Counted from the stretch's first letter, positions 14,780 to 46,313 are shown. The stretch: DNA of 64,000 nucleotides from a virus (IMGVR_UViG_3300033148_006102:96001-160000), one strand, 5' to 3'. Translations and numbers: made by a program. Notes: generated from the letters alone by a model not told the origin.

Positions 14780-15568
14780 ATGAGTATTCCTTCCGGTGGA
14801 CGTACATATGATCTCGCCCATCCTTCTGAGGGCGATATGACGCAAGGCGTCTCAAAAGGTGAACGAACTGGTCAACGCGGTGGTGACACTGGCGCTGACG
14901 GTTATACTGTTGGTGCAGAACCCCGTAAGATTATCCTCCGGGATGATGTCCAAGAGGGCTTCCACTATCCCGAACGTGGTCCTGCGTATAATGAAGCGCA
15001 AGGTGAACGTAAGGATTTGGGGTTGCTTCGAAAGATGTTAACAAAGAGAAGCGGAGATAGCGGCATGACCTGTCTAGAACGCGTAAAGCAAGCGATTGAT
15101 GCGATGGCACCAAAATCGGCCGTCGCCCGAGCTGTGCAAGGGACAGCTCTGACTGGTACTTCTGCCATTGGTCGTGTGAAGGCAGCTCTGGACTTAGGCC
15201 AGAATCCTGCTCTTCAAACTGCCGGGCAGTTATCAATGCAGCAGCCTTCGCCGGCGTTGCCACAGGTCAATGAGCTTATGACGCAACTTGCGATGAAGCA
15301 GTTGCAGGAAGAGCTCAACAAATCGACAGAGGTTAACGATCCTGTTGAGGCGGAAAACGAGAGTCTTCGCCGACAAGTTGAAAACCTTCGTCTGAAGAAG
15401 GAACTACTGGAAAAGCAGCAGGAAATGGGAGCTTTGGCGCCGCAACAGCAGGGTGCAGCACCGGCACCACCTCCTGCAGAGGGAGGAATGCCTCCAGACT
15501 CAGCAGAGGCACAGCAGGCACCTGCTCCGCCGTTTGAACAGGCGTTGAGTCCTGGCCAAACGATGTAA
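14780..15568 (+). CDS. Q/P-rich head-associated or scaffold-like protein
   Basis: Likely start ATG 14780 after SD AGGAG (the ORF track starts at 14678); coiled coil plus a disordered P/Q/A tail. Confidence 0.6.
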   Translation: MSIPSGGRTYDLAHPSEGDMTQGVSKGERTGQRGGDTGADGYTVGAEPRKIILRDDVQEGFHYPERGPAYNEAQGERKDLGLLRKMLTKRSGDSGMTCLERVKQAIDAMAPKSAVARAVQGTALTGTSAIGRVKAALDLGQNPALQTAGQLSMQQPSPALPQVNELMTQLAMKQLQEELNKSTEVNDPVEAENESLRRQVENLRLKKELLEKQQEMGALAPQQQGAAPAPPPAEGGMPPDSAEAQQAPAPPFEQALSPGQTM

Positions 15569-15627
15569 AACCTCGCTTCATAGTCTTATGCCATTGATTG
15601 GCTATTTCTTGGCAGGTAGGAAGATCC

Positions 15628-16701
15628 ATGTTCAAAGTCGCAGGAAAAGTCATCGACCAGTATGATGATCCCAAGTTCTTCGAAGATGAAGAGATGTTGA
15701 AAGTGGCAGCGCAGGCAGGTGTGTTGCCGGAAGAACTTGATAAACTGCCGGACAGCGACTTTGCGCTGAAGATCGCCGGCCGCACCAAACTTCATCGGTA
15801 TTACCCGATCCGAAACAAGATTGCCACCATGATTTCTTTATGGGGTTTCGAAAGAATATCCCCGAGCCTACCCGAGGATGTGGCCGTGAATGCTGCCACT
15901 CATCTAAAGGAGGCCTGCGAACGGTTCGACATCGATCACCCGATTCGTAAATTGGCGGCCGATTCTGTCGACCCAGTTCTCGACCACCGTCTCATCCGCA
16001 CAGATACCAAGCTTTCTCGGGAAGCGTTGGTTCTTGATCTGAATCATAAGGTTGCGGCATATCTTGAGGAATTCGATTCATACGAACCCAGGGATCGGGT
16101 CACTCTTGCCAGTGAGCTCAAACTACTTGCGGATACGCTTGGTGAGAAGCTCGCTGACGCACGTGTCTTGGATTACGTACCAACAGAGGGTGTTGGGCCG
16201 TTATTCCATTTGGCTGTTAACCAGCGCGAAACCAAATTGGCCGGCGATGGTAAAGCTGCGGAGATCACGGAACTACGTAATCTTTTCACTGAGGAAATGG
16301 ACCCACGCAGTTGTGCTGAAGCGCTAACTGCTTTTGATAAGACCGCAGGATTGAACACCGAGCGAGATCGGCTGATTGATCCGTTCAAGGCTGCTTTTGG
16401 TGGACAGGACAAGTACGCCTTGTGCAGCCCTTTTGCGACATATGATCCGTGGTACTACAAGTTGATGTCACTTGCTTATAATGTGGATCTTCTGCGGGAT
16501 CATTTCACGCAGGAGTTTATCGATCGTTTCCAACGTGCTCCCCAGCAAGAATATGAGCGCGCGGATTCGGCTATTCAAGCACGTATTCGAGATTTGGTAG
16601 ATCGAGTTGTGGAGGATCGAGTAGAAGGTCTGCGGCCAGGTAAGGAACATACTTTCGATAAGAAACGGTACGTAGACGTACCAAATCGAGCGGCTGAATA
16701 G
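15628..16701 (+). CDS. Head-associated protein rich in K-x-A motifs
   Basis: Likely start ATG 15628 (SD AGGA); about 12 K-x-A motifs (KVAG, KVAA, KIAG, KIAT, KLAA, KLAD, KLAG, KTAG...). Confidence 0.65.
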   Translation: MFKVAGKVIDQYDDPKFFEDEEMLKVAAQAGVLPEELDKLPDSDFALKIAGRTKLHRYYPIRNKIATMISLWGFERISPSLPEDVAVNAATHLKEACERFDIDHPIRKLAADSVDPVLDHRLIRTDTKLSREALVLDLNHKVAAYLEEFDSYEPRDRVTLASELKLLADTLGEKLADARVLDYVPTEGVGPLFHLAVNQRETKLAGDGKAAEITELRNLFTEEMDPRSCAEALTAFDKTAGLNTERDRLIDPFKAAFGGQDKYALCSPFATYDPWYYKLMSLAYNVDLLRDHFTQEFIDRFQRAPQQEYERADSAIQARIRDLVDRVVEDRVEGLRPGKEHTFDKKRYVDVPNRAAE

Positions 16702-16702
16702 T

Positions 16703-17299: not shown

Positions 17300-17302
17300 A
17301 AC

Positions 17303-19222
17303 ATGGCAGGTGGTACTACATTAAGCTCGACACCCGCCGGCCGCTTTACTGCGGAACCATCAGGCTTAAATAGAAATCGATATCCGCACCAGTTCTTCTC
17401 GTTGTCGGATGGGTTTATTCCGTCGACGACGAAGGAAATGATGCGTTGGGCGCTGTATTTGTACAGCACCAACCCCATCATCAACCAGATCTTCCGGAAG
17501 ATTGCGGGGTTCATCACAACCAAGATCATGGTTAGTGGCGATGCGGACGAAGATAAGCAAGTAGTTGAAGAATTCATCCATGATACGCTCAAACTGCCGC
17601 GGCAAGAGCGGCGCATGATGATCGACTACTTGTTGTATGGCAATGCGTTTGCCAAGTTCATTCCGCCGGCCGACAAGTACATGGTCTGTGACAAGTGCAA
17701 GGCGAAAACGCGCTTGGACGAAGTTGATAAGTGGACGTTTAAGAACATGCGCTTCTCCGGCACTTGTCCGAAGTGCGGCGCAAAAGGTACCAAAGAGCTC
17801 GCTGAGGAACCGATCAAAAACCGGAAGCGGGCGCGTTTGGTGCGTATTAATCCGCGTTATATCGACATCCACTACAACCCGCTAACAGAACAACGGCTAT
17901 ACATTTTCAATGTGCCGGCTGCGATTGAGCAAAGTCTCAAGCAAAGCAAAGATTACGTCCAGCGATGGTTTGTTGAAACTACGCCGCTTGATGTGATCAT
18001 GGCGATCAAGAAAAAGAAGGTCATCAAGTGGAACGAGCAGGAAGTATTTCACTTCCTCTTTGATTCAGCCTCGCGTGATGACGATACGTTCGGCGAGATC
18101 CCGTTATTACCCGTCTTCAAGCAGACCTGGCTACTACATACGCATTGGCGCGCGCAGGAAGCAATCTCGATTGAGCATATCACACCGTGGTTGCTCGTTA
18201 GTCCGGCGTCCGGGGGATCATCAGATGTCATGCACAGTTATGACATGGGACGCTGGACGAATTTCATGCGTCAGGCGTTTCTCAACTGGCGACGGGATCC
18301 CAATTACATTGCGCTCAGTCCGTTCCCGGTTACACAGGTGCAACTCCGCGGTGATGCGAAGGCGTTGGATACCTTCAACCAGCAGGAATTTTTGGTCAAA
18401 ATCATATCCGGCGGCATGGGCGTGCCGGAAGGTTTCATCTTTGGTGGCATGACCTGGAGCAGCGCGAGCGTTGAACTGCGGGCGCTTGAAAATGAATGGA
18501 TCAACCTGACTGCCCGGTTGGAAGAGTTCATCAAATGGGTTAAAACCAAGGCTGAGGCCATGCTGGATCTTCCGAAGGTGGAGATCGAGCACCAAGAATT
18601 CAAGATGGCCGATGATGTGCAGCAACGGCAACAAAGCCTACAGTTAGCTGCGCAAGGCGTGATTTCTCAGCAGCAGCTATGTCGTGACCTGGGTTATGAT
18701 TATGACGAAATGCTGCGCGAGAAGAAGCGTGAGCACGAAACAGATCAGTCTGGTGTGGCCATGCAGCAGAAGCGTGAGGCACAGGCACAAGCTGAAGTTT
18801 TGAAGATTCAAGGGCGGGTCCAGCTCGAACTTGAATTACAGCGTTTGAAGGAAACGCATAAGTTGCAACAGCAATTGGAAGCTGGTACAGTACCGGATAC
18901 ACCAACGGACTTTGGGAATGCCGGCCAGTTATCAGCGGTGAATGCACCAGGTCGTACAGACACGGTTCAGATCGGGCCAATGACATATTCCGAGGAACTG
19001 CTGCGGAACATGGCATCAAACTTCATGCGCACACGGCCGACAAACGAAATGCGCGAACGTGAACTGCGTACTTTGGAACTCGGAGATCCCGGTGGACGCG
19101 TACTTGCGAGAACGATTCGTAGGTATATGAAAGAAATCGAGGCGGAGTCGCGGAAGGCGGTTATGAACCCGTTACCGCAACAGAAGCCTGGTAAACGTAG
19201 TCCTCAGAATATGGTGATCTGA
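17303..19222 (+). CDS. Portal protein (with Zn-ribbon insertion)
   Basis: Portal-like helical architecture (NPIINQIFRKIAGF..., DYLLYGNAF, ISGGMGVPEGFIFGG); CDKC...CPKC insertion; located in the head module. Confidence 0.75.
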   Translation: MAGGTTLSSTPAGRFTAEPSGLNRNRYPHQFFSLSDGFIPSTTKEMMRWALYLYSTNPIINQIFRKIAGFITTKIMVSGDADEDKQVVEEFIHDTLKLPRQERRMMIDYLLYGNAFAKFIPPADKYMVCDKCKAKTRLDEVDKWTFKNMRFSGTCPKCGAKGTKELAEEPIKNRKRARLVRINPRYIDIHYNPLTEQRLYIFNVPAAIEQSLKQSKDYVQRWFVETTPLDVIMAIKKKKVIKWNEQEVFHFLFDSASRDDDTFGEIPLLPVFKQTWLLHTHWRAQEAISIEHITPWLLVSPASGGSSDVMHSYDMGRWTNFMRQAFLNWRRDPNYIALSPFPVTQVQLRGDAKALDTFNQQEFLVKIISGGMGVPEGFIFGGMTWSSASVELRALENEWINLTARLEEFIKWVKTKAEAMLDLPKVEIEHQEFKMADDVQQRQQSLQLAAQGVISQQQLCRDLGYDYDEMLREKKREHETDQSGVAMQQKREAQAQAEVLKIQGRVQLELELQRLKETHKLQQQLEAGTVPDTPTDFGNAGQLSAVNAPGRTDTVQIGPMTYSEELLRNMASNFMRTRPTNEMRERELRTLELGDPGGRVLARTIRRYMKEIEAESRKAVMNPLPQQKPGKRSPQNMVI

Positions 19223-19557: not shown

Positions 19558-19581
19558 GACTAGAATGCTAGTGGATTGAGA

Positions 19582-22500
19582 ATGAAGACGTTCAACAAAT
19601 CCACAGAGCTCGCGTATAACCGTATGCGCGCGAACGTCGTCGATCGAATATCGGCGATGTTTCCTATTGATACTCGCAAATACACGGTCACGGCGAAGAA
19701 CTTTCGCTGGATTGATAGCGCTGTCAACGATCTCAAACCCTTTCTTACAGCGAAGTTACGTAAAAATACTCTCGCGACACCATTGCGGGCGCACATCACG
19801 GTGAAGGACAAAAAGGGGAAGGTAGTCTACGAAGATAAGGACTTCCTGGTTACCGCGGTACCGAAGATGACGCCGCTAGGATCTTATGTAGTAAACGGGT
19901 CTGACGTTCAAACCATTACACAAGCGCGTCGTAAGCCTGGTATTTATACGTCACGCATGCCTAACGATAACATCTTGACACGTTTCAGCACTGCCGGCGG
20001 GGAGATCGGCATTATGCTGGACCGGCTTACTCGAGTATTCAAGGTTCGGGTGAGGGCGAAGTTCTTCCCGCTGTATTCAATTGCAGCGGCTGCTGGTGTG
20101 ACAGATGAAGAGTTGCGCAAGGCGTGGGGTGACGAACTTTACCGGATCAACAAACAGAAGGCCAAACCACTCAAGGATCAACAACGTTTCTGGCAGGCTA
20201 CACGGCGCGTTGCCTTACCGACGGACGCATCAGAAATTTCAGCCGGAATCAAGGCGTTCTTGGAGTCAAAACCACTGGATCCCAAAGTTACGAAGTTGAC
20301 CGTTGGCGAGGGTTTCGACGCGATAAATGCTCGTGCGCTTGTGGCGGCCTCAGAAGCAGCTTTGAAGGTACAGCAGGGTAAGCGTGAAGTTGACGACATG
20401 GAGTCGTTGGCATACAAGAACTACTACGGTATCGAAGACTTCGTGAGTGAAGCACTAGACCAAGCTACAAACAAGATTCGAAATCATATCGCCTACCTTC
20501 TGGATCGGACTGATAACGCTAAGCGTGCGCTTAGTCCCGAACTCTTTACTCAGCCTATTATGGGCGAGTTTACGCAGTCAGAGTTTTCACGATTTTCGTC
20601 ACAAAACAATCCGCTGGACATACTGGCGACAGATAATCTGGTGACCATTACCGGTCGTGGCGGTATCCAGAATCATCATGCCATTACCGAAGGTCTGCGG
20701 GCGCCGCATAGTACGCATCTTGGGTTTTACGATCCAACGCATACGCCAGAAGGTTGCCATGATTCTGAGACTGAAGTATTTACGGATAAGGGCTGGGTAA
20801 AGTGGCCTGATGTAACTGAGAACACTAGCTTCGCTTGTTTGATGGATGGAGATGTACTTGAGTACCATAAGGCTGAAGAGCTGCAGGTATATGACTGGAA
20901 TCAGCCTCTTTATGGATTTAAATCCAAGACCATTGAATATCTCGTCACAGCTAATCATCGCATGTGGGTTCGCCCAGATGATAGTGATCGCGGGCAGGGG
21001 TTACCGAAGTACCGCTTTGAAGCTGCCGAAGCTGCGCATTTGAAGCCACGTAAGGTTCGGTGTGGTGGGCATCTGGCGTATTACGGTAAACTAGTTAATC
21101 GTAGCACAATACGCTTAGCTGAGGTCCAGGGTGGGAGCGCTACAAAACAAGCCGACGCTTTTGATATTGAGGATTGGGCGGAATTCTTGGGATGGTATAT
21201 TTCCGAGGGTAGTACTTGGTACAAACCTGAAATCGGTAAGTATGCTGTACAGATTACTCAACGATTAGACGCGAATCCCGAAAACGTAGCTCGTATCGCT
21301 GCATTGTTGGATCGCATGCGACTTCCGTTCTCATTCAGTAAGCCCAAAACTTTTTCAATTTCACGGAAGCAACTGGCTGCGTATACGAAACAGTTTGGAA
21401 AATGCGATGAGAAGTTTTTACCTGAAGAGGTTTTTGAATGGCCTGTAGTTGCACGTGAGCGCTTGCTTGAAAGTCTGATGCTAGGTGATGGTCGAAAAGG
21501 TAAAACAAAAATCGGGTGGTTATCTGGAAGTGGCTATTGCACGACAAGTTTACGGCTAGCTAAAGATGTGGAACGTCTTTGTTTTGGGTTGGGGATTTCA
21601 ACACGTACCGTATTTGAACCAGACGAACGTGCAGTACATTACAAAGGTTGCTGGATTATACACTTGCATGTGTGCCACGAACGGACGCTCCGTAAAAGTA
21701 TGACAGCACAAGATTCTGGCTATTTCATGCAGGCATATAATGGCAAAGTGTATTGTGCTACGGTACCAGGTCATCGTTTGTATTGCCGTAGAAATGGTAA
21801 AGGTGGCTTCTGGTCAGGTAACTCTGGCATCGGAATCACAACACACATGGCGTCGGGTGTTGTGCGACAGGGCCAGGAATTGAAAAGCCCTTTCTTCGAT
21901 GTGCGTAACAAGTGGCGAGTAGTGAACCTGACGCCGACGCAGTTGATCGGTAAGGTCATCGCGTTTCCTGACCAAATTGACGCGAAGACGCGGAAGTTCA
22001 AAACCGCTACGGTTAACGTTATTCAGGACGACAAACAGAATCGTGTGCGTACGGATAAAGTCGATTACGCCATGATCGATAGCGCGATGGTGTTTGACCC
22101 TATCACGGGTATGATGCCGTTCTTGCAGAACACAGATGCGAACCGTGTGTTGATGAGCGCACGCCATATGGAGCAGGCGGTACCGCTGATTACACGAGAA
22201 GCGCCGCTGGTTTCCGCACGCGTAGGCGATACCGATATTACTCAAGAACAACGGCTTCATTACACCGGTGTTGGCTCACGGGCACCGGTGGCCGGCGAAG
22301 TTACTCGAGTAACAGCACAGAAAATCACGATTACCGATAAGGACGGAAAGAAGCACGTTGTTCCGATGCTTCGTGATTATCCGTTGAACAGCGAGCAGTA
22401 CTTTACCGAGGTCCCCGCGGTTAAAGCTGGGGACAAGGTAAAAGAAGGCGAAATACTGGCGGATAATAATTTTACCCATAACGGTAGTCTGGCGCTGGGT

Positions 22501-25500
22501 AAGAATTTGACCACAGTATTCATGCCCTATCGCGGACTGAATTTTGAGGACGGCATCGTCATTTCTGAAACGGGCGCGCACAAATTGTCGTCAGAACACA
22601 AGCACGAACTACAGCTTGAATTGGCGAAAAATGTGTTGTACGGCGTTGACAAGTTGTTTGCGATTCAGCCGGACGCCCAGCAGAACTATGATAGCAGTAA
22701 GTTTGATGAAAAGGGTTTACCCAAAGTCGGCGCTAAATTCCATCACGGCGAAATATTGTTGCCGGCTGTGCGAGAAGTGAAGGTAGATCCGACAAGTGAA
22801 TTCGCCCGCATCCACAAAAAATTGCGTAACCCTTATCGAGATGCTTCAATTGTGTGGGAGGAACCTGTCGAGGGCGAAGTAGTACATGTCGCAAAAACTT
22901 CAAAGTTTGTGTCGGTGCTATTGAAGACGATCGAGGCCGCTCAGGTTGGTGATAAGCTTAGTTCGCGCAATGCGAGTAAGGGCATCATTACTGCAATTAT
23001 ACCTGACAAAGAAGCGCCGCATATCAAAGGCGAGCCTGTCGATGTTATCTTTAATCCCTTTGGCGTACCCGGCCGTGTGAACCCCGGTTTGTTCATGGAG
23101 GCCGCCGCATCGAAGATCGCAGATAAAACAGGCCAGCCATACCTCATCCGACAATTTGATCCGAAAGTCAGTATGAACGATCAGCTGATATCGGAGCTGA
23201 AGAAGCACAAGTTGTCGGATACCGAAGAAGTCACAGATCCGTTGACTGAGACGACTCATTCGGATGTGCTTACTGGAAAAGTGTACTGGGGTAAGCTGAA
23301 GCACCATGTACGCAAAAAGTTCAGCGCACGTGGTTTGGATCATTACACACTCGAAGAGCGACCTGGAAAAGGACACCACGCGTCGGCACAGACTATTGGC
23401 GCATTAGATACATATGCATTGCTCGCGCACGGCGTACCGCATGTGATGACGGAATTTACAGGTCTCAAAGCGAATCGAAACGATGAATATTGGAATGCGC
23501 TACAGACAGGTGCACCTTTGCCGGCGCCAAAACGTCCGTTCGTGTTGACCAAGTTTGAGACCTACTTACGTGGCAGCGGAATAAATCTGAAGCGCGAAGG
23601 CACGAAGATCAAAGCGTTGCCGCTAACGGATAAGGACGTCACGACGATGTCCCAGGGTAAGATCAAGAATCCGTTAGTGGTAAATGCGAAGTCATTGAAT
23701 CCTGAACGTGGTGGATTATTTGACGAGGGGATAACTGGCGGCTTCAACGCCAACAATTGGAATCACATAGACTTGGCAGAACCGGTGCCAAATCCACTCT
23801 ATGAGGTTCCCATTGTTACTCTAACCGGTATCAAGAAAACGGAGTACGAATCGATTCTTGCCGGCCAGCTTTATGTGACGCGTGGTGGTACATTGGGTAC
23901 ACGCCAAGTGGAGAACGCGGTCACAGGCGGAGCCGGAATCAAACGTTTGCTTGAGATGATCGATGTTGCGCGTGAATACAAGAAAGCGAAAGCACAGGTC
24001 CTGACAGCAAAGAAGGCCGATCTGGCCCGGCTCTACAAGAAGCTGAAGTATTTGACGGCGCTCAAAGATCTCAAACTGACGCCGGTTGAGGCGTACGTGA
24101 TGCACAAAATGCCGGTCGTTCCGACATCGTTTAGACCGGTAACGGCATTACCAGATGGCAGTCTGAATGTGGCTGACATTAATCATGGGTATCGAGAGGT
24201 GCTCATGGTTAACGACCAACTCAAGAAACTCAAGCAGGACGGCATCGATGATGAGCACTTGGTTCCACTTCGACGCGGCTTATATGGCGCGGTGTCCGGT
24301 ACAATTGGCCTCACCGAACCTCTCACGCGATCAGCGAATTTTAAAGGTTTCATTAGTACAATTGCTGGACGCCAAAATAAAAGTGGCATGTTTCAAGGCC
24401 AACTGGTTTCACGGCGCCAAGATTTATCAGGCCGGTCTACCGTCATCCCCGAGCCCACATACGGGATGGATGAAGTCGGCTTGCCTCGTGAGATGGTTTA
24501 CACGATATACCGTCCGCTCATTGTTCGAGAACTCGTTACAACGCTCCGCGTTAAGCCTCTTGAAGCTCGAAAGCTGATTGAGGAAAACGACCCAAGAGTT
24601 GCGCATGTTGCACGGGAACTGGTAAAGCTCCACCCAGTATTACTGAACCGCGCGCCAACGTTGCATAAGTTCTCCATCATGGGCCTGAAGCCGCGGATCA
24701 TCGAAGGTAAAGCGATCAAGGTGAATCCGCTTATCATCAACGGTATGAACATGGACTTTGACGGTGACTCAAGCGCGGTACATCCCGTTATATCGCTTGA
24801 TGCGCGTCAGGAAGTCTTGGAGAAAATGCTGCCCAGTAAGAATCTGATGTCTCCGCGAGACCGACAGCGCATCGTGCCGAATATTTCGCGTGAAACGGTA
24901 CTGGGTCTCTGGATGATGACCCGTCCGGTGTATCCGTCTGATATTCAGATCATGCATGGCGTGAAGGCGCTGCGCCTCATTGATGAAGGCAAAACTCGAG
25001 TAAACACCCGCATAATGTATCGCGGTAAGCCTACCACACCTGGCTTTTTCTTAGTTCGCGCTGCAGTGCCCGCGTATGTCGATATGGATCCCGGCAAAGA
25101 AGTTACCGGTAAAATGGTTGAGGGTTGGATTCAGCAGATCGCAAAGAAGAGTCCATCTGATGCGGCTCGTGTGCTCAATGACTTGAAGAACCTGGGTAAC
25201 TACTATGTCAGCCGTATTGGTTATTCAGTATCACTGAACGACATGTCCGCCGGTCAAGCCGAGCGTGATCGTATTATGCGCCGATTGGTTAGAAATCTCC
25301 GCCAAGAAGGCATGAAGATGGAGGTTTTCCAGCGTGGCATCGGTGAACTGAATAAGTTGATGAAGCGTCAGAAGAAAAATCGTCTGGTGCAGATGGTTAA
25401 TTCCGGTGCGCTATCCAAGGCTGACGCGATGCGGAAGATGATCTTGCCGGCCGTCGCGGTGACAGATTACAAAGGCAAAGTGGTACCGCTGCTACTTGAA

Positions 25501-34406: not shown

Positions 34407-34409
34407 CTT

Positions 34410-35780: not shown

Positions 35781-36400
35781 TGCTGAAGGTTGCAGACCAT
35801 CATCTGCTGTACGAAGGCGTACCAGAAGAAATGACTGCAGCAGACAGGCAGCAGCTGGCGCGTGTCTGCGGTATTGCCAAACGTGCAGCCAGCCAAGGTG
35901 ACGATATCGGCATACTTGAGGCCGTTACGGAAGCCATGCAGGGTCTCAGTCACGAGGCTGTCGAGGACGTCAAAGTGGCTGTCGAAGAAGTGCTTCCTTC
36001 AATAGATCCTGAGTTTGCCAAGGTTGCATCAAATATTGCTCGAGGACTGGGCCTGCTTTTGGGTACCGGTACGCTGCTTCGTTCGGGCCTAAATAAGGCG
36101 CAACGGCAGGAACGATTTAAGCAATCATTCATGCAAATGTTGCAGCGTAATCCTCATTTGAAAGATCGGCCGAATGAGGTGTCGGAGGCTTTCCAGGTGT
36201 TGTCGACGTACGCGCCATCACTAGCTGTGGATCCGATTGCCAGTGGTCATTTCGTATCAAACGTGATGCGACTGGGTCAAGGTGCGATCAGTCCAGCCAT
36301 GATCAAAGAGTTGATTGAGACCGAGTCGGCAAAGAGCGGAGATCCGCAAGCGCAGATGATGGATTTTGCACGTAGTTTGATGAGCATGAGGGATCAATGA
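35780..36400 (+). CDS. Head-associated protein with K-x-A motifs
   Basis: KVAD, KRAA, KVAV, KVAS, followed by IARGLGLLLGTGTLL. Confidence 0.6.
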   Translation: MLKVADHHLLYEGVPEEMTAADRQQLARVCGIAKRAASQGDDIGILEAVTEAMQGLSHEAVEDVKVAVEEVLPSIDPEFAKVASNIARGLGLLLGTGTLLRSGLNKAQRQERFKQSFMQMLQRNPHLKDRPNEVSEAFQVLSTYAPSLAVDPIASGHFVSNVMRLGQGAISPAMIKELIETESAKSGDPQAQMMDFARSLMSMRDQ

Positions 36401-37278: not shown

Positions 37279-38819
37279 TCATCAAAACTGACATAGGCGG
37301 CTGCTGGGTAGACGGCGAACCTACCTATCTCGTGCTGGGCACGCGTCAGTTCGAGAAGATCGCGTCGTCGGAAATCTATATTCCAGCACGAATGAAATTA
37401 GCGGTTGACGCGTATCAGCCAGATGATGATCACGCTGGCGTCATCATTCACGGTTTGGGTAGTTCTGAGTATTGGGGACAGAATCGAAACGGCGACTTGT
37501 TCCCGGAGCAATGGGAAAAGCAGGCCAATCTCATTAATGATGATCCGACGAAGATGTGGGGTTATCACACCTTTGAGAAGAACGCATTCCCATTCCGGAA
37601 TCACAATAACAAGGATCCAAAATTTGCGCTTGGTCCGAAGGTTGTGTGCGCAGCATGGAATCCGAAGATGCATCGTGTCGAGGTCCTCGCGAAGATTGCA
37701 CGAGCAGTCGCGCCGGATATTGCAGATAAGATTGATGCTGATGAACCATTGATGTGGTCAATGGGCGCCAAGGTTCCATTCGATGTATGTACAGGTTGTG
37801 GTCATCGTGCGAAGACGGCTATGGAATATTGTGACTGTCTTCGCTTTAAGCGGGGTCAGATCACGCCGAAGGGTATCAAGATCGGCATGGAGAATCCGAA
37901 GCCGAATTTCTTCGATATTTCACAAGTAGGACGCGGCGCAGATATTTCCGCATATTCTTTGGCGAAGGTTGCTGGACTTGCTAACTGGAGTGATGCGACG
38001 TGTGATCAAAAGCCTCAGTTCAACGTGCCAGCAGAAAAAACTTCAGTACTTTTTTCTGACAAAATAGGTCAGCGTGATTCGACTGCTGCAATCGATAAGG
38101 AAATTCCGATGACTTCCGGAGATGCGACACCAGAGGAGGCGATCGGTCCAGAAGACATCGATGAAGAAACACTCAACCCTTGCCAAGAAGCAGTAGCAAA
38201 CACAATGCATCGGGCGCCGGCGCAGGCCACCATCATGATTCGCATGCGTGGAGAAGGCGCAGAAAAAATTCTTCCGATGCTTGCGCAACTCGGAATTATT
38301 CCAACGCCTGGTGAGGTAAAAGCGGCTGGTTGGTGCGTCAAAGATGTGCCTGAGAAACTTGCATTTACCTCCGGACAGACTACACAGTTATATGACCTCG
38401 TAGCACTGATTCCGCAAAGATCATTATTCGGACCAGTGTTGGGAGATCGGCTTCTCAAACAGGGATTATATGAGGGGCCGTGGCAGGATGGGAGTGATCC
38501 TGTCTACCGCGCAGTTGTCCAATGCTATATGAAGACGGCTGCGGACCCGAAAGCCCTGGGTGCATGGATCAGCACCATTAATCCCAAAGCGATTATGGCT
38601 CATATTGACCATGATCGTGGAACGGTCAAGGAGGCAGTTAGCTCGAATACGGCCGTTAAACTGATGTTAGTCCCGATGATCCTTGGTGGGATTTATTCTC
38701 ACAAGGAAGCACAGGGTGAAAAGCTTAGCGGTATGGAGAGATTTATTGCTACGAATCCTTTGGCCGCTGGAATGTCGTTGAATTACCTGGCAATGAAATT
38801 GTTAGGTAGGAAAAAGTAG
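37275..38819 (+). CDS. Prohead (maturation) protease with Zn ribbon and C-terminal extension
   Basis: FRNHNN (candidate catalytic His), WSMGAKVPFDVCTGCG (candidate catalytic Ser plus Zn ribbon), FFDISQVGRGAD resembling the HK97/assemblin-type E-x-S-x-V-x-x-PA motif; upstream of the scaffold and MCP genes. Confidence 0.75.
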   Translation: MIIKTDIGGCWVDGEPTYLVLGTRQFEKIASSEIYIPARMKLAVDAYQPDDDHAGVIIHGLGSSEYWGQNRNGDLFPEQWEKQANLINDDPTKMWGYHTFEKNAFPFRNHNNKDPKFALGPKVVCAAWNPKMHRVEVLAKIARAVAPDIADKIDADEPLMWSMGAKVPFDVCTGCGHRAKTAMEYCDCLRFKRGQITPKGIKIGMENPKPNFFDISQVGRGADISAYSLAKVAGLANWSDATCDQKPQFNVPAEKTSVLFSDKIGQRDSTAAIDKEIPMTSGDATPEEAIGPEDIDEETLNPCQEAVANTMHRAPAQATIMIRMRGEGAEKILPMLAQLGIIPTPGEVKAAGWCVKDVPEKLAFTSGQTTQLYDLVALIPQRSLFGPVLGDRLLKQGLYEGPWQDGSDPVYRAVVQCYMKTAADPKALGAWISTINPKAIMAHIDHDRGTVKEAVSSNTAVKLMLVPMILGGIYSHKEAQGEKLSGMERFIATNPLAAGMSLNYLAMKLLGRKK

Positions 38820-38866
38820 CAAGTTATTCGTGCCATGTGGCATAGTTTCAAGGAATCGGAGAAACA

Positions 38867-39370
38867 ATGAATCGAGAAGAGATCATTGCTGCGTTGAAGG
38901 ACGTCGTGGATGCCGAAAAGACGGCAGAGGATTCAACGCCCGCGAACGTTGAGCCGGAAAAAACTCCTGACGAGCAAAAAACTGCGGAAGAGCAGAAGAC
39001 TGCCGAGCAGGAAAAGATTGCGGCGCAGGCCAAGGTCGCCGGTTATCTGGGTCGTCTTGTTGCCCAGTCTTTCGTCGCAGAGACCATCAAGCTTGCTCAG
39101 AAGCTTGGCGGATCCGGACAGAATGCTGTTGCCACACCAGGTGGTAAGGAGCATGAGGTAAAGGGAACGGGCGGCGCCGGTAGCCAGCTCGCTTCGCAGG
39201 CCGATGCTATTGGCACGACCAAGAAGACCCCGCCGGATGAGGCCAACTCCAAGCATCTCAAAGAAGATGATGCGATGGCCGGACGCCCTGGCGCTGTCAA
39301 CAAGTCTCAGAACACAGATTCTGAGAAGAGCGTTGGCGGTTCCAAGCTGAATCTCGGCTCCGCTGCATAG
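38867..39370 (+). CDS. Scaffold-like/internal head protein
   Basis: EKTAED, QKTAEEQKTAEQEKIAAQ, KLAQ; low complexity; strong SD GGAG. Confidence 0.6.
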   Translation: MNREEIIAALKDVVDAEKTAEDSTPANVEPEKTPDEQKTAEEQKTAEQEKIAAQAKVAGYLGRLVAQSFVAETIKLAQKLGGSGQNAVATPGGKEHEVKGTGGAGSQLASQADAIGTTKKTPPDEANSKHLKEDDAMAGRPGAVNKSQNTDSEKSVGGSKLNLGSAA

Positions 39371-39434
39371 CTAATCGTTTAACCACGATTACTTGTGCTT
39401 GGACAATACTTGGCACGTCTACTTAAAAGGACGG

Positions 39435-39851
39435 ATGATGGATATTGCTGCGCTAGCGGAATTAGTCCAAAAGAAGCTTGCCAAAGGACAAGCTGGTGAA
39501 GATGTCGTTTATGAAAACGACACTTCAGTGGACGCTCAGGGAGTAGAGCACGAAGGTACGGTCTACGAAGTCAAGACCGCCCAAGAAAAGGTTCAGTCCA
39601 CGCCGCTGAATACGGAACTCATTCAAGAGACCGTGAAGCAGGCTGCCCTGATTGGCGACAATTATATGGGCGAGGACAAGGATCTTTTCAAGGCTGCGGT
39701 TGACAGCATTCTGATGATGAAATCCGCGGATGTTTCGATCTGTGAAGACAGTGATCTGGATACCGCGGAAGACATTATGAAGGCTGCTGGCTTGCTCGTT
39801 GATCGCATCAACGCGCGCCGTCCGGTCGCGGAAGCTACTTCCGAGGAATAA
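39435..39851 (+). CDS. Small acidic head-associated protein
   Basis: Start moved to ATG 39435 (SD AAGG); KTAQ, KQAA, KSAD, KAAG motifs. Confidence 0.6.
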   Translation: MMDIAALAELVQKKLAKGQAGEDVVYENDTSVDAQGVEHEGTVYEVKTAQEKVQSTPLNTELIQETVKQAALIGDNYMGEDKDLFKAAVDSILMMKSADVSICEDSDLDTAEDIMKAAGLLVDRINARRPVAEATSEE

Positions 39852-39904
39852 CGGGTAGGTCAATACCATAGGCCTACCTCACGAGACCCGTGAGGAGAAA
39901 CACT

Positions 39905-40228
39905 GTGGATAAGGTTGCAGAACAGTTGCAAGGCATGCTGACAGAGGGCGAAGCCATCCTCGAAAAGCAGGCGTTTGAGGCGTCTATCACTGCACTTGAG
40001 AATGGCCTTCCGGAAGATCAGCAAGAAAAGCTTGCGGGTATCTTCAATGAGCTGCACAAGATGTTCGGCGAACAATACAGCCCGAATGCGCTGTTGAAAG
40101 TCGCCGAGGATCTGCTGAATGAACAGCAGGCTCAGGAAGAAGACCCCGAGTTCAAGAAGCAGGCTGAACTGAGCTATCAGCTTGGCGAATTGGCTGCTGA
40201 AGCACTCGTAGAGAAGTTGCGGTCATAA
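39905..40228 (+). CDS. Small acidic head-associated protein
   Basis: Start moved to GTG 39905 (SD GAGGAG); KVAE x2, KQAF, KLAG, KQAE. Confidence 0.6.
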   Translation: MDKVAEQLQGMLTEGEAILEKQAFEASITALENGLPEDQQEKLAGIFNELHKMFGEQYSPNALLKVAEDLLNEQQAQEEDPEFKKQAELSYQLGELAAEALVEKLRS

Positions 40229-40229
40229 C

Positions 40230-40430: not shown

Positions 40431-40443
40431 TGAAGGCGGAGTT

Positions 40444-40797
40444 GTGGCTGACCGGGATGAAGTTACGCACCAGCTGAAGATTGCAGCCGAGAGAATCAAA
40501 GGCGACGCATTAACGATTCAGTCGCTGACGCGATTCAAGGAAGCAGCCGAGCTGGTTTTAGGCTTAATCGCGGAAGGACGGCTAGATCCGTCAGACGGGC
40601 GACGAAAAATCGCTACACTGATGGAAGCAGAGGATTTCGAGTTGGAGAAACGAGCAATCGAACTTCTTCAACAAAGTACCCAGTCGGAACCGGTGTTCGG
40701 TCGGCTGGAAGAAGCTTCTGAAAAGGTTGCCGTAGAGGAAGCAACCGCGGAGGATGCCCTCATTCATGAGCTTCGGGATATCAATGGGTACATGTAG
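40444..40797 (+). CDS. Scaffold-like protein
   Basis: 117 aa, helical; KIAA, KEAA, KIAT, KRAI, KVAV; C-terminal helix EDALIHELR. Confidence 0.55.
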   Translation: MADRDEVTHQLKIAAERIKGDALTIQSLTRFKEAAELVLGLIAEGRLDPSDGRRKIATLMEAEDFELEKRAIELLQQSTQSEPVFGRLEEASEKVAVEEATAEDALIHELRDINGYM

Positions 40798-41517: not shown

Positions 41518-42648
41518 ATGGCACTTGATGCTGCTGAATTCAATGGCCTCTTCTTTGGCGCCATGAAGCAAGGTGACGCGGGGATCGAAAAGCTTTCGGC
41601 TTCGCTTGGAACATACATCCAGGAGAAGATTCGTGAGTCTGGTTTTGCCCGCCGCATCCTTGACACTCAGACTGTGACGCCACAAGAGTGCCAGATTAGC
41701 CCGGAACACAACGGGCTAGAGTTCCTCGTACCGCTCGAGCCACAGACCGTGGCCCAGCGGGTGACTTTCCGTGGTGAACCGGATCACACTTGGATCGAGA
41801 AGAAAATCTTCCCGATTCGGTTTGAGACGATCATGACGGACGAGTTCAACAAGACCGAGGAAGAATTGATGGCTCACCGTGAGCCTGTGCTCAAGATCAT
41901 TGAGCAAAACTCGGTTAAGGACATCCAGGAGCAGGAGGACGTGTCCTTCCTGACCCAGGTGAAGGCTGCTGCTTTCGCGTCCACCTATCGCCTCAACCGC
42001 GTCGCGGTTGGTGCCGGCGGTGTTGTCGGTTTCACGACCGGCGCACAGGTCGATGCGTTCTTCAAGTCTGGCGCGACGCCAGCCAATCCGGAGAACTCCA
42101 ATATCGTCCTCTCCGCCAACACTTACTTCCGTCGTGATGTACTGACGGAACTTTCTCAGATTCTGACCATGCGTCAGCTCGAGCTCAAGGTGTTCTTGCT
42201 CCACAAGTACAACTTTGATGAGACGCTGCGCTGGTTCGCAGATGAAATCGGCCACCAGGTTGCCAACTCCATCACCATTGATGGGTACAAGGAATCAACC
42301 GTCGGTGGTTTCACGTTCATCACCACGATCAAGACGAACCGCGAGCTCGTCCGTGCCGGCCATATCTACGGATTCGCCGACAAGGCCGCTCTCGGCAAGT
42401 TCCTGATCCTGACCGGAACCAAGTTCTGGATCAACAAGCGCCGTAACGTTATCACGATGGCCGGATGGGAAACCATCGGTGCCGGTATTGGTAACATCAA
42501 CGGCTGCGCGATCCTGCTGCTTGCCGGTTCCGTTCCGCTGGACGTGAACGTGCCTTCTGATGTGAATGCTGCTGTCGGTGCGCCGACCACCATCCGGATT
42601 TATCCGATCGGGGTGGCAAGAGCCGGAGGTGCTTTACCGCATCAGTAA
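41518..42648 (+). CDS. Major capsid protein (HK97-fold, inferred)
   Basis: 376 aa after the protease/scaffold genes; QEKIRESGFARRIL, EQNSVKDIQEQEDVSFL (spine-helix-like); strongly biased (C-ending) codons consistent with high expression. Confidence 0.8.
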   Translation: MALDAAEFNGLFFGAMKQGDAGIEKLSASLGTYIQEKIRESGFARRILDTQTVTPQECQISPEHNGLEFLVPLEPQTVAQRVTFRGEPDHTWIEKKIFPIRFETIMTDEFNKTEEELMAHREPVLKIIEQNSVKDIQEQEDVSFLTQVKAAAFASTYRLNRVAVGAGGVVGFTTGAQVDAFFKSGATPANPENSNIVLSANTYFRRDVLTELSQILTMRQLELKVFLLHKYNFDETLRWFADEIGHQVANSITIDGYKESTVGGFTFITTIKTNRELVRAGHIYGFADKAALGKFLILTGTKFWINKRRNVITMAGWETIGAGIGNINGCAILLLAGSVPLDVNVPSDVNAAVGAPTTIRIYPIGVARAGGALPHQ

Positions 42649-43471: not shown

Positions 43472-43540
43472 TTGCGCAAAGCACTTAATGGAGATATAGT
43501 CTCTGTCGTCCATTCTTTGTTTCTATAGTGAGAGGAAATC

Positions 43541-44314: not shown

Positions 44315-44317
44315 CCC

Positions 44318-44863
44318 ATGGCCGACGACAGAGCATCACCAAATGTCCCGCACAAAAACGAGGACATTGAAGGTACCCGTGACGGTCGGGGCAGTTTCTG
44401 GCCAACGCCACCGCATGAGTGGATAGAGGCGTTACGTGACTACTTACGCGATTACGCTGAGGACAATGACCTGTTGGACTTTACGCAGGAACACTCCGAT
44501 GCACAGCTACGCAAGGCGTGGGGTAAAGCGCTGGTTGACTGGAATTCGTCCCCGCCGCTCATCCCAGCAGTAAACTTTACAGCGCATCCGGCTCGTTTCT
44601 TATTGCTGCTCAAAGCGTGTGTTGAGGTCTTGCGATCCGTGTCGTTTAAGTTGATGCGGAATGAAGTCAGCTTTAACGCAGGTTCTGTAAGTTACGATAT
44701 TCGTGTTCAATGGCAGCGCTATGAACGAGCAATCGGTGCGTTAACCGACGAGTACGAACAGAAGAAAGCCGCTGTGAAGGTAGCGATCAATATGGGTCGC
44801 GCATTCGGCGACAGCTTCTCTGAATTCCATCGAATCGGGATTGGCATAGATCAGGCAACATAA
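44318..44863 (+). CDS. Head-tail connector/adaptor protein
   Basis: Helical 181 aa protein downstream of the MCP; VSFNAGSVSYD segment is typical of adaptor beta-hairpins. Confidence 0.6.
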   Translation: MADDRASPNVPHKNEDIEGTRDGRGSFWPTPPHEWIEALRDYLRDYAEDNDLLDFTQEHSDAQLRKAWGKALVDWNSSPPLIPAVNFTAHPARFLLLLKACVEVLRSVSFKLMRNEVSFNAGSVSYDIRVQWQRYERAIGALTDEYEQKKAAVKVAINMGRAFGDSFSEFHRIGIGIDQAT

Positions 44864-45726
44864 TGCATGACCCACTGCAAGTAGCCCGCAACGATACTGC
44901 GAGCATTCCGCAGACAGTAGAAGTGACGCCCGAAGGCACCTTCTTTGAGCCTATCGAAGTCACGGCCGTGAACGCTCGGAATATATTGATTCAATGGTTC
45001 TTGCTACCCACCAATGAAAACACGGCTACGCTCACGTACGAGATCTACCGAGCCTTTTCACGAGTTGGGCCATACACCCAGATCGGGACTGCACCTGGCA
45101 CGCAATTTTACTTCTTAGATAATGACGTGCCAGCGGTCAGTAAATGGGATGAAGTTTGGTATCTGGTTGCTGCGATTCTGCCGGATTCAACTTTGCAGTA
45201 TAGCGACCCGAATCATATGCGAGGGATCCCACCAGGCCGTATTCTGGCGATCAATGATCAAGCACGTATCGTTTACTGCACGCATAATGGTGTCGGGGTC
45301 CTGGTATATAAACGACGACGAGAGGGTAATAAATGCGGTCTGTGTTGGGATGCTATTCAAGGCATTTCAACAGATGATGCATGTCCCATATGTTTTGGTA
45401 CCGGATTGGTGCAGGGCTACTATCCGCCGGTTCGTACGCGCTGTTTAATCACGCCGACGATGCAAAAGATCGACTACCATTCGCACCAGCATGCGTCGGC
45501 GATTGCCCAAGCTAATATGCTGCGATATCCTCGAGTACAACCAAACGACGTCTTGTATGAAGAAAATAGCTCACGTTGGTGGTATGTGGGGACTGTCGCA
45601 CCAAACGAAGATAATCGCATTTTGGTGACGCAAGACGTGACATTAAAGCAGGCCGATCCTCATGACAAGATTGTAGATTTGCTTGCCGCAGATGTTGCCG
45701 GAAACCTACTTTTACCTGTTGTCTGA
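44863..45726 (+). CDS. Neck/head-closure protein with FN3-like N-terminus and Zn ribbon
   Basis: TYEIYRAFSRVGPYTQIG...FLD (FN3-like), CGLCWD...CPICFGTG, then YPRVQPNDVLYEE...WYV beta-barrel-like C-terminus. Confidence 0.6.
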   Translation: MHDPLQVARNDTASIPQTVEVTPEGTFFEPIEVTAVNARNILIQWFLLPTNENTATLTYEIYRAFSRVGPYTQIGTAPGTQFYFLDNDVPAVSKWDEVWYLVAAILPDSTLQYSDPNHMRGIPPGRILAINDQARIVYCTHNGVGVLVYKRRREGNKCGLCWDAIQGISTDDACPICFGTGLVQGYYPPVRTRCLITPTMQKIDYHSHQHASAIAQANMLRYPRVQPNDVLYEENSSRWWYVGTVAPNEDNRILVTQDVTLKQADPHDKIVDLLAADVAGNLLLPVV

Positions 45727-45779
45727 CTACACTGATGGTGTACGTGTTTGCGTCAATTGTTTTGTTTCGGAGATAACAC

Positions 45780-46313
45780 ATGAGCGACCATGATCCTGCC
45801 ACTGAGGCACTGTTAGCTGATTTGCAGCACATCAACGAAACGCCTGCAATCAAGCTGGCTGAAGAAGTTGGTGCGCCTACAATCGGTATGGAGGCAGCCG
45901 ATTATTTGGCCAACTCCATTGATGAGGATGCGAACCAAGTCAAGCAGGCAAATGATCTGCGTGAGGGCATCATTGACGACGAAACCCTGAAGCTCGCTGC
46001 GGAAAAAGCAGCTGAGGATAAAGGGGAAGACGATGATGAAGGGGAAGAGAAGGGCAAGAAAGCTCCTCCTTTCGGCAAGCAGCACGGAAAAGGCAAAGGC
46101 AAAGGTGACTGCAAGATGGCGGAAGAAGAGGATCTTCCGTGGGGCAAAGAAGCGGCCGATTTGCCGCCGGCTCTCGATCTGGAATTCTGGACGCAGACTG
46201 GTCCAGAAGAGGTCACAACCAAGTTTGCCGAGGGCTTCATGGAAGAGCTGCAGTCCCACGGCGATGAGTTCGGCAAGGCCTATGACGATATCCTAGCCGT
46301 AGCAGTTCGGTAA
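45780..46313 (+). CDS. Acidic K-x-A-rich protein (predicted internal head protein)
   Basis: Seven K-x-A motifs in 177 aa; SD GGAG. Confidence 0.6.
   Translation: MSDHDPATEALLADLQHINETPAIKLAEEVGAPTIGMEAADYLANSIDEDANQVKQANDLREGIIDDETLKLAAEKAAEDKGEDDDEGEEKGKKAPPFGKQHGKGKGKGDCKMAEEEDLPWGKEAADLPPALDLEFWTQTGPEEVTTKFAEGFMEELQSHGDEFGKAYDDILAVAVR

Follow-up and report, generated by a model that had tools for sequence, protein, structure and literature searches.

K-x-A, a motif dense in head-module proteins of an uncultured phage, as a probable prohead protease cleavage code

Introduction

Does the short motif Lys-x-Ala (K-x-A), which recurs in the head proteins of a large uncultured phage, act as the recognition code of its prohead protease? 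The original prediction, made from the window (the whole 64,000-nucleotide stretch of viral DNA analyzed here, IMGVR_UViG_3300033148_006102:96001-160000), answered that a protease specific for K-x-A, or for a variant with Ser in place of Ala, processes more than a dozen head proteins, and that the motif predicts which proteins are packaged inside the capsid. Such codes have precedents. In phage T4, gp21 (MEROPS S77; motif L/I-x-E) cuts gp22, gp67, and gp68 at multiple points, the pieces leaving the head, and itself bears the motif near its own ends; the propeptides of phiKZ and SPN3US contain redundant motif copies; and herpesvirus assemblin (MEROPS S21) cuts its R- and M-sites after Ala, with a small residue next (e.g., PrV YLQA/T and VQA/S).

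Results

We screened the 238 open reading frames (ORFs) of the 195-kb phage genome by comparing the K-x-A count of each protein with those of 2000 composition-matched shuffles. Only eight ORFs showed an excess at p<=0.01, each reaching p<=0.0015, and all eight sit in one structural block, the head module of the window:

15598..16701, + strand: K-x-A-dense acidic protein (367 aa, pI 5.2; 13 K-x-A versus 2.5 expected, p<=0.0005)
27965..29773, + strand: K-x-A-dense protein (602 aa, pI 5.2; 17 versus 3.5)
34410..35780, + strand: K-x-A-dense, all-helical, scaffold-like protein (456 aa; 18 versus 3.7)
37275..38819, + strand: prohead protease (514 aa; 13 versus 4.1; PHROG 18299 head maturation protease, E 1.5e-5)
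39393..39851, + strand: small acidic K-x-A-dense protein (152 aa, pI 4.4; 6 versus 1.3)
39890..40228, + strand: small acidic K-x-A-dense protein (112 aa, pI 4.4; 5 versus 0.9)
40444..40797, + strand: small acidic K-x-A-dense protein (117 aa, pI 4.6; 5 versus 0.8)
45780..46313, + strand: very acidic K-x-A-dense protein (177 aa, pI 4.3; 8 versus 2.1, p 0.0015)

Three further proteins were marginally enriched:

35780..36400, + strand: 206-aa protein (4 versus 1.0, p 0.015)
38867..39370, + strand: small scaffold-like protein with KTAEEQ/KIAAQA repeats (167 aa; 6 versus 2.8, p 0.04)
44318-44863: marginal protein (3 versus 0.8, p 0.04)

The overabundance first noticed in the head proteins is thus confirmed and far exceeds chance, the marked proteins carrying the motif four to five times as often as expected at random, although the marked set (eight clear and three marginal members) falls short of "more than a dozen." The individual counts proposed earlier were nearly right: about 12 for 15628..16701 (13 in the ORF from 15598), about 17 for 27965..29773 (exactly 17), and 7 for 45780..46313, which is indeed enriched but has 8. 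The marked proteins are Ala-rich, with pI values of 4.3 to 5.5 (Asp and Glu make up 25% of 45780-46313). In 15598-16701, which lies two genes upstream of the portal gene and has no PHROG or Pfam match, all 13 copies fall within residues 13 to 274; in 27965-29773, for which a search of a 5.8-billion-protein database found only 3 homologues, they are distributed over the full length; and in 39890-40228 they lie at residues 8, 26, 47, 70, and 90.

Several other genes of the block are unmarked or serve as landmarks:

17303..19222, + strand: portal protein (BLASTP E 3e-56 to Arash gp204, annotated as portal protein; 3 K-x-A versus 2.9 expected)
19576..26703, + strand: fused RNA polymerase beta/beta'-like protein (2375 aa; PHROG RNA polymerase beta subunit families; 8 versus 15)
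30917-32725: terminase
41518..42648, + strand: major capsid protein (MCP; 376 aa; PHROG 2522 major head protein, E 3.7e-11; 2 versus 1.7)

The motif had been said to recur in every ORF from 32793 to 40797, but 32793-34406 (4 versus 3.4 expected) and 36397-37278 (2 versus 1.2) were unenriched. Its scarcity in the 943-aa protein originally called the sheath (1 versus 1.4) and in the fibre-region ORFs (0 to 2 each) was borne out.

The signal is confined to one residue pair at one spacing. Within the eight proteins, which total 2,497 aa, K.A occurred 85 times, versus 19 each for KA and K..A, 13 for K...A, and 18 for A.K; with AxxK included, all such rearrangements numbered 11 to 20. Substituted residues fared no better (R.A, 8; K.G, 8; K.S, 5), ExA and QxA were not enriched, and no ORF enriched in K-x-S or K-x-G was found. 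The Ser variant of the proposed K-x-A(/S) rule is represented only by a single MCP site. When all 400 residue pairs were scanned at gaps 0 to 3 in ten marked proteins, KxA stood out with 95 copies versus 22.7 expected (z 17.5); the runner-up pair reached z 4.4, and no partner pair with helical periodicity was enriched. At the DNA level, AARNNNGCN occurred 95 times in frame 0 but once and twice in the other two frames and 4 to 7 times per frame on the opposite strand, and Lys and Ala codon usage at K-x-A was the same as elsewhere; the excess is selected at the protein level, not at the DNA level. Lys within the motif accounts for 49% of all Lys in the marked proteins, where sites occur about once per 25 aa, and spacings of <=9 aa are too few (7 observed versus 23 expected).

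The candidate enzyme, 37275-38819, lies in the head-morphogenesis module with terminase, scaffold-like genes, and the MCP gene, and no other protease gene was seen in that module. From its N terminus it comprises a propeptide, a catalytic domain (approximately aa 34 to 229, nt 37374-37961; AF2 pLDDT 89 to 97 across residues 34 to 229) with a Cys-rich insert, a disordered linker (230 to 292), and a helical C-terminal domain. Foldseek alone gave a weak match (E 0.2), but VIA-align matched the model to T4 gp21 (5jbl_A; Z 10.1, rmsd 2.7 A over 136 residues) with a score far exceeding those of the next unrelated rows, and to the herpesvirus proteases of VZV (Z 7.7), HCMV (Z 5.9), and KSHV (Z 5.3). 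The modeled protease thus shares the beta-barrel-like fold of T4 gp21 and herpesvirus assemblin. Since it matched no Pfam family at E<=0.01 (Peptidase_S77, S78, the family of HK97 gp4, and S21 were looked for), no PDB sequence at E<=10, and only PHROG 18299, it forms a distinct sequence family within that fold. Among 44 homologues (22 to 53% identity), H110 and S162, 52 residues apart, are invariant (44/44) and are the predicted catalytic His and Ser, in assemblin order. S162 is the serine of the WSMG motif, which, like FEKIA-SS, LAKVA-GL, and the MCP motif EKLS-AS, was present as originally described.

The catalytic domain is bracketed by two copies of the motif:

37356..37364, + strand: N-terminal bracket site K28-I-A30 (FEKIA/SS), where the protease is predicted to cut itself ahead of the catalytic domain
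37965..37973, + strand: C-terminal bracket site K231-V-A233 (LAKVA/GL), whose predicted cleavage would release the protease domain from the linker and helical tail

At the N-terminal site, which Arash, D69, and phage G share, K and A are each kept in 38 of 44 homologues and the following residue is S, G, or A in 42 of 44; at the C-terminal site, K is invariant (44/44), all but one homologue have A (43/44), and 38/44 have L two residues before K. K28-I-A30 lies within a segment of pLDDT<50 (residues 23 to 33), and K231-V-A233 opens the disordered segment 230 to 292 (pLDDT<50). Hence both edge motifs do lie at the domain borders, as proposed, conserved like catalytic residues yet placed in predicted disordered linkers just beyond the folded domain. 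This layout is that of the T4 gp21 propeptides and the herpesvirus R-site. In total, the 44 homologues carry 492 K-x-A versus 168 expected; in the protease studied here, copies at residues 82, 102, 116, 140, and 180 fall in the folded domain itself.

We then scanned the head modules of nine relatives with the same gene synteny (Salmonella phage Arash, Vibrio phage D69, Bacillus phage G, and six metagenomic phages; L001 to L009). K-x-A was the top gap-1 pair in eight of the nine (L002 to L009) and second in L001, with z values of 4.3 to 10, and the enriched proteins group around the protease gene. The motif and this protease family thus co-occur across Bacillus/Lysinibacillus, Salmonella, and Vibrio hosts. 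The homologue of 27965-29773 in L009 (54-2291) has 16 K-x-A versus 5.2 expected, and syntenic small proteins retain K-x-A density although BLAST similarity is lost.

The family of 34410-35780 is large (237 representatives). Its AF2 model is all helix (helices of <=54 residues) with a confident N-terminal domain (residues 1 to 86). In an alignment of the query and 99 homologues (100 rows, ~20% identity), K-x-A numbered 978 versus 331 expected, was enriched at p<=0.01 in 83/100 rows, and was the top pair among the homologues; a few sites are kept in position (K31 in 82/100 rows, K186 in 65, K60 in 62, and K105 in 58). L/I/M-x-K and K-x-x-S were likewise enriched among the 99 homologues, which extends the motif to hydrophobic-x-K-x-A-S and makes it resemble herpesvirus A/S sites. 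As for positional conservation generally, the bracket sites and the MCP column hold, but most substrate sites do not: the motif Lys was kept in 20/58 cases versus 21/70 for other Lys, and single substrate sites were conserved no better than other Lys or Ala. For most substrates, the conserved feature is accordingly the density of K-x-A rather than its position, a turnover expected for redundant degradation sites.

Discussion

One short motif is common to the protease's own termini and to many head proteins, as is characteristic of prohead-protease codes. Because K-x-A occurs at four- to fivefold excess in 8 to 11 head proteins and at both protease edges, it is most likely the protease's cut site. 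We consider it probable, from sequence and structural models, that K-x-A is a P3-Lys/P1-Ala cleavage code by which acidic, helical core or scaffold proteins are shredded into peptides of ~20 aa. Three points are inferred: cutting at the motif, the position of the scissile bond after Ala (predicted from sequence), and the role of 37275-38819 as the enzyme. The published Arash and phage G work covered here reports no cleavage sites, the Arash supplement consists of gene and protein sequences only, and our literature search found no published description of a K-x-A cutting rule.

In the proposed scheme, the protease would enter the prohead as a zymogen, and cuts after Ala30 and Ala233 would free the catalytic domain (~aa 31 to 233). 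It would then cleave each accessible K-x-A just behind its Ala, taking Lys as P3 and Ala as P1 and favoring L/V/I/T at P2, and so reduce 8 to 11 acidic, largely helical core or scaffold proteins (~2,500 to 2,900 aa) to peptides with a median of ~21 residues, which would leave the shell or stay as internal peptides. Many sites lie in predicted helices or in the folded domain of the protease and could be cut only after unfolding, if at all. With about one site in every 25 aa, these acidic helical proteins look more like scaffold or core that is shredded than like cargo that is retained; hence, contrary to the original prediction, the motif would predict prohead entry and contact with the protease, not packaging in the virion. 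The idea of a K-x-A-specific prohead protease with many marked head proteins is otherwise supported by every computational test named with the original prediction (enrichment over shuffles, enrichment in relatives, and positional conservation of the bracket and MCP sites) and by the fold, if not for so large a set.

T4 gp21 is the best structural match, and the two systems share a short motif with P3 and P1 determinants, many head substrates, and a protease gene adjoining scaffold-like and MCP genes. Unlike in T4 (P1 Glu, P3 Leu/Ile), P1 would be Ala and P3 Lys here, and the enzyme differs from gp21 in its 514-aa length, its Cys-rich catalytic insert, its long helical C-terminal domain, and its lack of Pfam-level similarity. 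The phages of phiKZ gp175 and SPN3US gp245 likewise combine a large head, a virion-associated multisubunit RNA polymerase, and many processed head proteins, but their motifs (S/A/G-x-E and A-x-E) have P1 Glu, and mostly N-terminal propeptides are removed while mature proteins remain, unlike the shredding proposed here. With assemblin the protease shares the fold, a predicted cut after Ala followed by a small residue, and the order of protease domain, release site, linker, and scaffold-like C-terminal part; a herpesvirus polyprotein, however, offers just two or a few sites, with no P3 Lys requirement, and the herpesvirus enzyme has a His-Ser-His triad, compared with invariant H110 and S162 here. 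Since the fixed residues are Lys and Ala and neither ExA nor QxA is enriched, K-x-A would be a new specificity variant outside the Glu-specific cleavage group. Its density is much above that shown for any characterized system. Lacking an experimentally characterized parallel, such density could also serve another purpose.

One such purpose, which we regard as unlikely, is docking: K-x-A would bind core proteins to the inner shell, the portal, or the protease, with multivalency giving the density. Conservation of density rather than position is typical of multivalent short linear motifs, many sites lie in helices, and K-x-A is far denser here than is A-x-E in SPN3US, where cleavage is established by experiment (z 2.0 over the head region in the same unbiased pair scan). 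Yet the two best-conserved copies occupy disordered linkers at the protease domain borders, where homologous proteases cut themselves, and two fixed residues with one between reproduce the P3/P1 pattern of T4, phiKZ, and SPN3US sites; targeting and cleavage are moreover compatible, as with the T4 capsid targeting sequence.

Cleavage by an enzyme other than 37275-38819, from the host or the phage, seems less probable still. Some phages rely on a host protease for head maturation, as Staphylococcus phage 80alpha does on Prp, and the link drawn here between enzyme and motif is a prediction; but the motif travels with this protease family across three host groups, both flanks the protease domain and abounds within the protease in 44 homologues, and shares its module with no other protease gene seen. 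Marking of Lys for modification or cross-linking inside the head (acylation, methylation, or an isopeptide bond) is just as improbable: it would suit the large share of Lys found in the motif and the strict preference for Lys over Arg, but the module shows no obvious modifying enzyme, we know of no phage system with K-x-A-type Lys marking for modification, and neither the conserved bracket sites nor the small residue after Ala would be explained. Finally, although the marked proteins are helical and Ala-rich and whole-protein shuffles ignore local composition, a functionless by-product of Lys- and Ala-rich amphipathic helices is effectively refuted by the internal control pairs, the pair scan with its missing helical partners, the restriction to 8/238 ORFs, and the non-helical setting of the best-conserved copies.

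Returning to the cleavage code, we note a candidate N-terminal processing site in the otherwise unenriched MCP:

nt 41590-41598: K25-L-S27/A28 (EKLS/AS), a variant of the motif

Of 10 homologues, seven have K-x-A and one has K-L-G in the column aligned with K-L-S, and the MCP N terminus would probably be trimmed here by ~27 residues. The MCP motifs at K149 and K289, as well as those of the portal, presumably must escape cutting.

Identification of the head block

The window covers bases 96001-160000 of a single 195,108-bp contig. Database matches within the head block identified the features listed below, and nearly all remaining ORFs of the block had no Pfam or PHROG match.

Recognizable features of the head block
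17303-19222, portal (BLASTP E 3e-56 to the portal of Salmonella phage Arash)
19576-26703, fused RNA polymerase beta/beta'-like protein, 2375 aa (PHROG RNA polymerase families)
30917-32725, large terminase (Pfam GpA_ATPase)
37275-38819, + strand, head maturation protease, 514 aa, weakly recognizable (PHROG 18299)
41518-42648, major capsid protein (PHROG 2522)

A nucleotide-level search of the reference phage collection returned no similar phage. At the protein level, homologues of the protease were found in Vibrio phages D69, D148, and D181 (35-37% identity), Arash (42%), Bacillus phage G (gp19, 29%), and cluster C mycobacteriophages (about 30%).

K-x-A is in excess in eight head-module proteins

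For each of 55 translated ORFs in the window, the number of K-x-A (Lys-x-Ala) occurrences was set against that in 2000 shuffles of the protein. The original prediction of a K-x-A enrichment over shuffled sequences was borne out, with eight proteins lying far above chance.

K-x-A occurrences, observed versus expected
15598-16701: 13 versus 2.5
27965-29773: 17 versus 3.5
34410-35780: 18 versus 3.7
37275-38819 (protease): 13 versus 4.1
39393-39851: 6 versus 1.3
39890-40228: 5 versus 0.9
40444-40797: 5 versus 0.8
45780-46313: 8 versus 2.1

The excess was marginal in 35780-36400, 38867-39370, and 44318-44863, which together with the eight are termed marked proteins below. The motif had also been said to recur in every ORF from 32793 to 40797, but this was too broad, as no enrichment was observed in 32793-34406 and 36397-37278. 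Across the whole genome (238 ORFs, simple caller), p ≤ 0.01 for K-x-A was reached only in the same eight proteins.

When all 400 residue pairs were scanned at gaps of 0 to 3 in ten of the marked proteins, K-x-A reached a z of 17.5 (95 versus 22.7 expected), and every other pair remained at ≤4.4. More specifically, K.A occurred 85 times within the eight proteins, compared with 19 (KA), 19 (K..A), 13 (K...A), and 18 (A.K) for altered spacing or order, and with 8 (R.A), 8 (K.G), and 5 (K.S) for substituted residues. As all of these motif controls fall far below K.A, the signal requires the spacing, the order, the Lys, and the Ala, and these same controls exclude the possibility that the excess is an artefact of helical composition. 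At the DNA level, AARNNNGCN was found 95 times in the reading frame, once and twice in the other two frames, and 4 to 7 times in each frame of the opposite strand, and the choice of Lys and Ala codons at the motif matched usage elsewhere. A DNA-level motif was thus ruled out, and this frame-restricted pattern with normal codon use indicates selection at the protein level. An origin through repeats or paralogy was likewise ruled out, site contexts being unrelated except for KTAEEQ repeats in 38867-39370.

Within the marked proteins, 49% of the Lys residues sit in K-x-A. The residue between K and A showed a mild preference for L, V, I, or T, and the Ala for being followed by E, A, or G and then by E or D; a hydrophobic residue was present 2 or 3 positions ahead of the K at 65% of sites (50% expected). 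No ORF was enriched for K-x-G or K-x-S as co-motifs. Depletion of K-x-A in the shell, portal, and RNA polymerase proteins was not significant; the RNA polymerase carried 8 versus 15 expected, and the corresponding Arash and D69 subunits were at expectation. An excess of R-x-A was detected in one unrelated ORF of the genome only (449-3166, + strand, outside the window; 905 aa; 18 versus 8.2, p ≤ 0.005).

The protease has a gp21-like fold bracketed by conserved K-x-A sites

Forty-four homologues of the protease, mostly metagenomic, were retrieved from a large protein database and used as the AlphaFold2 alignment. In the resulting model, residues 34-229 formed a confidently predicted domain (pLDDT 89-97) and the C-terminal part was helical, with low-confidence segments at 1-16, 23-33, and 230-292. 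No match was obtained against PDB sequences. A structural search against representatives placed T4 gp21 at the top (5jbl_A; Z 10.1, rmsd 2.7 Å, 136 residues), followed by the proteases of varicella-zoster virus (Z 7.7), cytomegalovirus (Z 5.9), and KSHV (Z 5.3); a Foldseek comparison of the full-length model with the PDB gave weak gp21 rows only. The serine of the WSMG motif, singled out in the original prediction, corresponds to S162 and is invariant, together with H110, in the homologue alignment.

Two K-x-A sites, FEKIA|SS (K28-x-A30) and LAKVA|GL (K231-V-A233), fall in predicted disordered segments directly outside the protease fold. The first was kept in 38/44 homologues, with S, G, or A as the following residue in 42/44; at the second, the K was present in 44/44 and the A in 43/44. 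Both sites also occur in Arash gp222, phage G gp19, and the homologue from D69. Conservation on a par with that of the catalytic pair, in linkers at both domain borders, is the pattern that autoprocessing sites would be expected to show. Outside the alignable domain, the homologues contained 492 K-x-A versus 168 expected.

The catalytic domain also holds a Cys cluster at residues 172-188 (37788-37838; C172-x2-C175 ... C186-x-C188), the first three Cys of which are nearly invariant in the 44 homologues and the last of which is replaced by His in Arash, D69, and phage G. The cluster looks like a zinc-ribbon insertion in the gp21-like fold. Three members of the homologue set (P0011, P0012, and P0046; 683-878 aa) match Pfam Hom_end_hint, Hint_2, and LAGLIDADG_3, and are intein-interrupted head protease genes.

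At the N terminus of the major capsid protein, the column of the variant site EKLS|AS (K25-S27) contained K-x-A in 7 of 10 capsid homologues and K-L-G in one; Arash gp226 and the D69 capsid homologue have K-E-A. This pattern fits the removal of a short N-terminal peptide, which the protein may undergo, and could also be that of a conserved N-arm.

Substrate candidates retain motif density rather than position

The pI values of the marked proteins are acidic (4.3-5.5), and neither Pfam nor PHROG gave a match for eight of them. When the 456-aa substrate candidate 34410-35780 was used as the query of an exhaustive profile-free search, 237 representatives were found. In a 100-sequence alignment that includes the query, to which the homologues are about 20% identical, K-x-A occurred 978 times versus 331 expected; 83 of the 100 were individually significant, and none fell below 1.5-fold. 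Several positions were conserved (e.g., K31 in 82/100). L/I/M-x-K and K-x-x-S were enriched too in the 99 homologues remaining when the query was excluded, which suggests that the signal may extend to hydrophobic-x-K-x-A-S. The predicted structure consists of helices alone, some as long as 54 residues, and its N-terminal domain is small and confident; as modeled the protein is scaffold-like, and a BFVD fold search with this model gave no meaningful match.

Orthologues sharing 27-38% identity were compared between this phage and L009, one of nine relatives' head loci; the set comprised four pairs of candidate substrates and one of proteases. Positional conservation held for the protease bracket sites, which are near-invariant, and failed for motif Lys in general, which were retained at 20/58 versus 21/70 for other Lys. 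Where the motif Lys was retained, the Ala was retained in 16/20. Syntenic small acidic proteins retained K-x-A density and had lost BLAST similarity. Such maintenance of density while positions turn over is expected of redundant degradation sites. Short spacings between K-x-A (≤9 residues) were strongly under-represented (7 versus 23 expected), and cutting at every K-x-A would give a median fragment of 21 residues.

The K-x-A excess extends to relatives carrying the protease

An unbiased pair scan, in which the motif was not presupposed, was applied to the head regions of Arash, D69, phage G, and six protease-bearing metagenomic contigs. K-x-A was the leading gap-1 pair in 8/9 head regions (z 4.3-10.1); in Arash, it was a close second (z 4.4). 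The K-x-A-enriched proteins of these relatives cluster near the protease gene; in Arash, gp220, gp223, and gp225 are K-x-A-dense. In the region from Mycobacterium phage Cali, K-x-A was enriched only in the 1286-aa gp93 (14 versus 7.1), which bears the protease domain; the leading pair was R-x-A (z 4.2), and the C-terminal bracket site was not recognizable.

Cali gp93 (13767-17627 of the Cali locus, L010) is annotated as a tape measure protein. Its N-terminal ~250 residues are homologous to the prohead protease, and its gene immediately precedes that of the major head protein. A protease-scaffold fusion is more likely than a tape measure.

Comparison with known cleavage systems and interpretation

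In the literature covered, all T4-type prohead proteases cleave after Glu, the motif being L/I-x-E in T4 and S/A/G-x-E in phiKZ/SPN3US. In T4, the motif of gp21 also occurs close to the termini of the protease itself, and gp21 cleaves gp22, gp67, and gp68 into fragments, and the herpesvirus protease releases itself at the R-site (e.g., YLQA|T). The proposed K-x-A code has a two-determinant geometry in common with T4 and phiKZ/SPN3US and an Ala at P1 in common with herpesvirus assemblin, whereas P1 is Glu in T4, phiKZ, and SPN3US. We found no literature on a K-x-A cleavage rule, and no processing sites are reported in the literature covered on Arash and phage G. In SPN3US, cleavage after A-x-E is experimentally established, and an identical scan of its head region gave A-x-E a z of 2.0, with p ≤ 0.01 in one protein. 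Since this signal is weaker, K-x-A is much denser than the motif of a proven system, which strengthens our observation; by the same calibration, a reading in which proteins are shredded exceeds anything demonstrated for a phage.

In Table 2 of PMC10585845, which reports the Arash virion proteome, the "coverage" values mismatch the unique-peptide counts (e.g., 100% from 2 peptides) and cannot be sequence coverage; 116/272 Arash proteins were called structural. Given this mismatch and the number of proteins detected, nothing on processing can be inferred from these data. "Structural protein" annotations in the Arash record should be used with caution.

The most economical reading of these sequence patterns makes K-x-A a probable cleavage code in which P3 is Lys and P1 is Ala. 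The protease would first free its own domain and would then dismantle core and scaffold proteins, much as T4 gp21 does with gp22, gp67, and gp68. Alternatively, K-x-A may be a docking motif that is left uncut, may be cut by another enzyme, or may signal lysine modification, but each of these is less consistent with the bracket sites and with the co-inheritance of motif and protease. For a broader account, we judge the chances to be evenly balanced: across a widespread clade of large phages including phage G, Arash, marine Vibrio phages, and hundreds of uncultured genomes, a T4-fold protease would have switched from Glu at P1 to a herpesvirus-like Ala at P1 plus Lys at P3, and a saturating "shredding code", with a site roughly every 25 residues and short spacings disfavoured, would reduce the whole multi-protein prohead core to ~20-aa peptides.

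If true, the Lys-x-Ala rule would represent a new specificity within the T4-type fold, with a P1 residue shared with the distantly related herpesvirus enzymes, and the shredding code would allow the internal proteins present transiently in the heads of this clade's uncultured phages to be read directly from sequence. The signal suffices to pick out head-core and scaffold proteins from genomes almost devoid of database matches, and it applies to cultured phages too (Arash, Vibrio D69/D148/D181, and phage G). It would also provide a defined protease and site pair for engineering capsid-targeted cargo in these phages, analogous to the T4 capsid targeting sequence.

Additional features of the locus

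The RNA polymerase-like gene (19576-26703), two genes past the portal, is a single ORF matched along its length by several phage RNA polymerase beta-subunit families. Arash has two separate proteins in its place, gp206 (1525 aa) and gp216 (606 aa), which ranked first and fifth, respectively, by spectrum count in an Arash particle preparation. An HNH homing-endonuclease gene (42746-43471) immediately follows the gene for the major capsid protein, and the arrangement in Cali is alike, with HNH gp96 after the major head protein gp95 (L010, 19297-20214). A 258-aa ORF (52905-53681) matched a family of RNA polymerase sigma factors (PHROG 351, E 3.7e-29) and is the final + strand ORF ahead of a block of - strand ORFs beginning at 53678.
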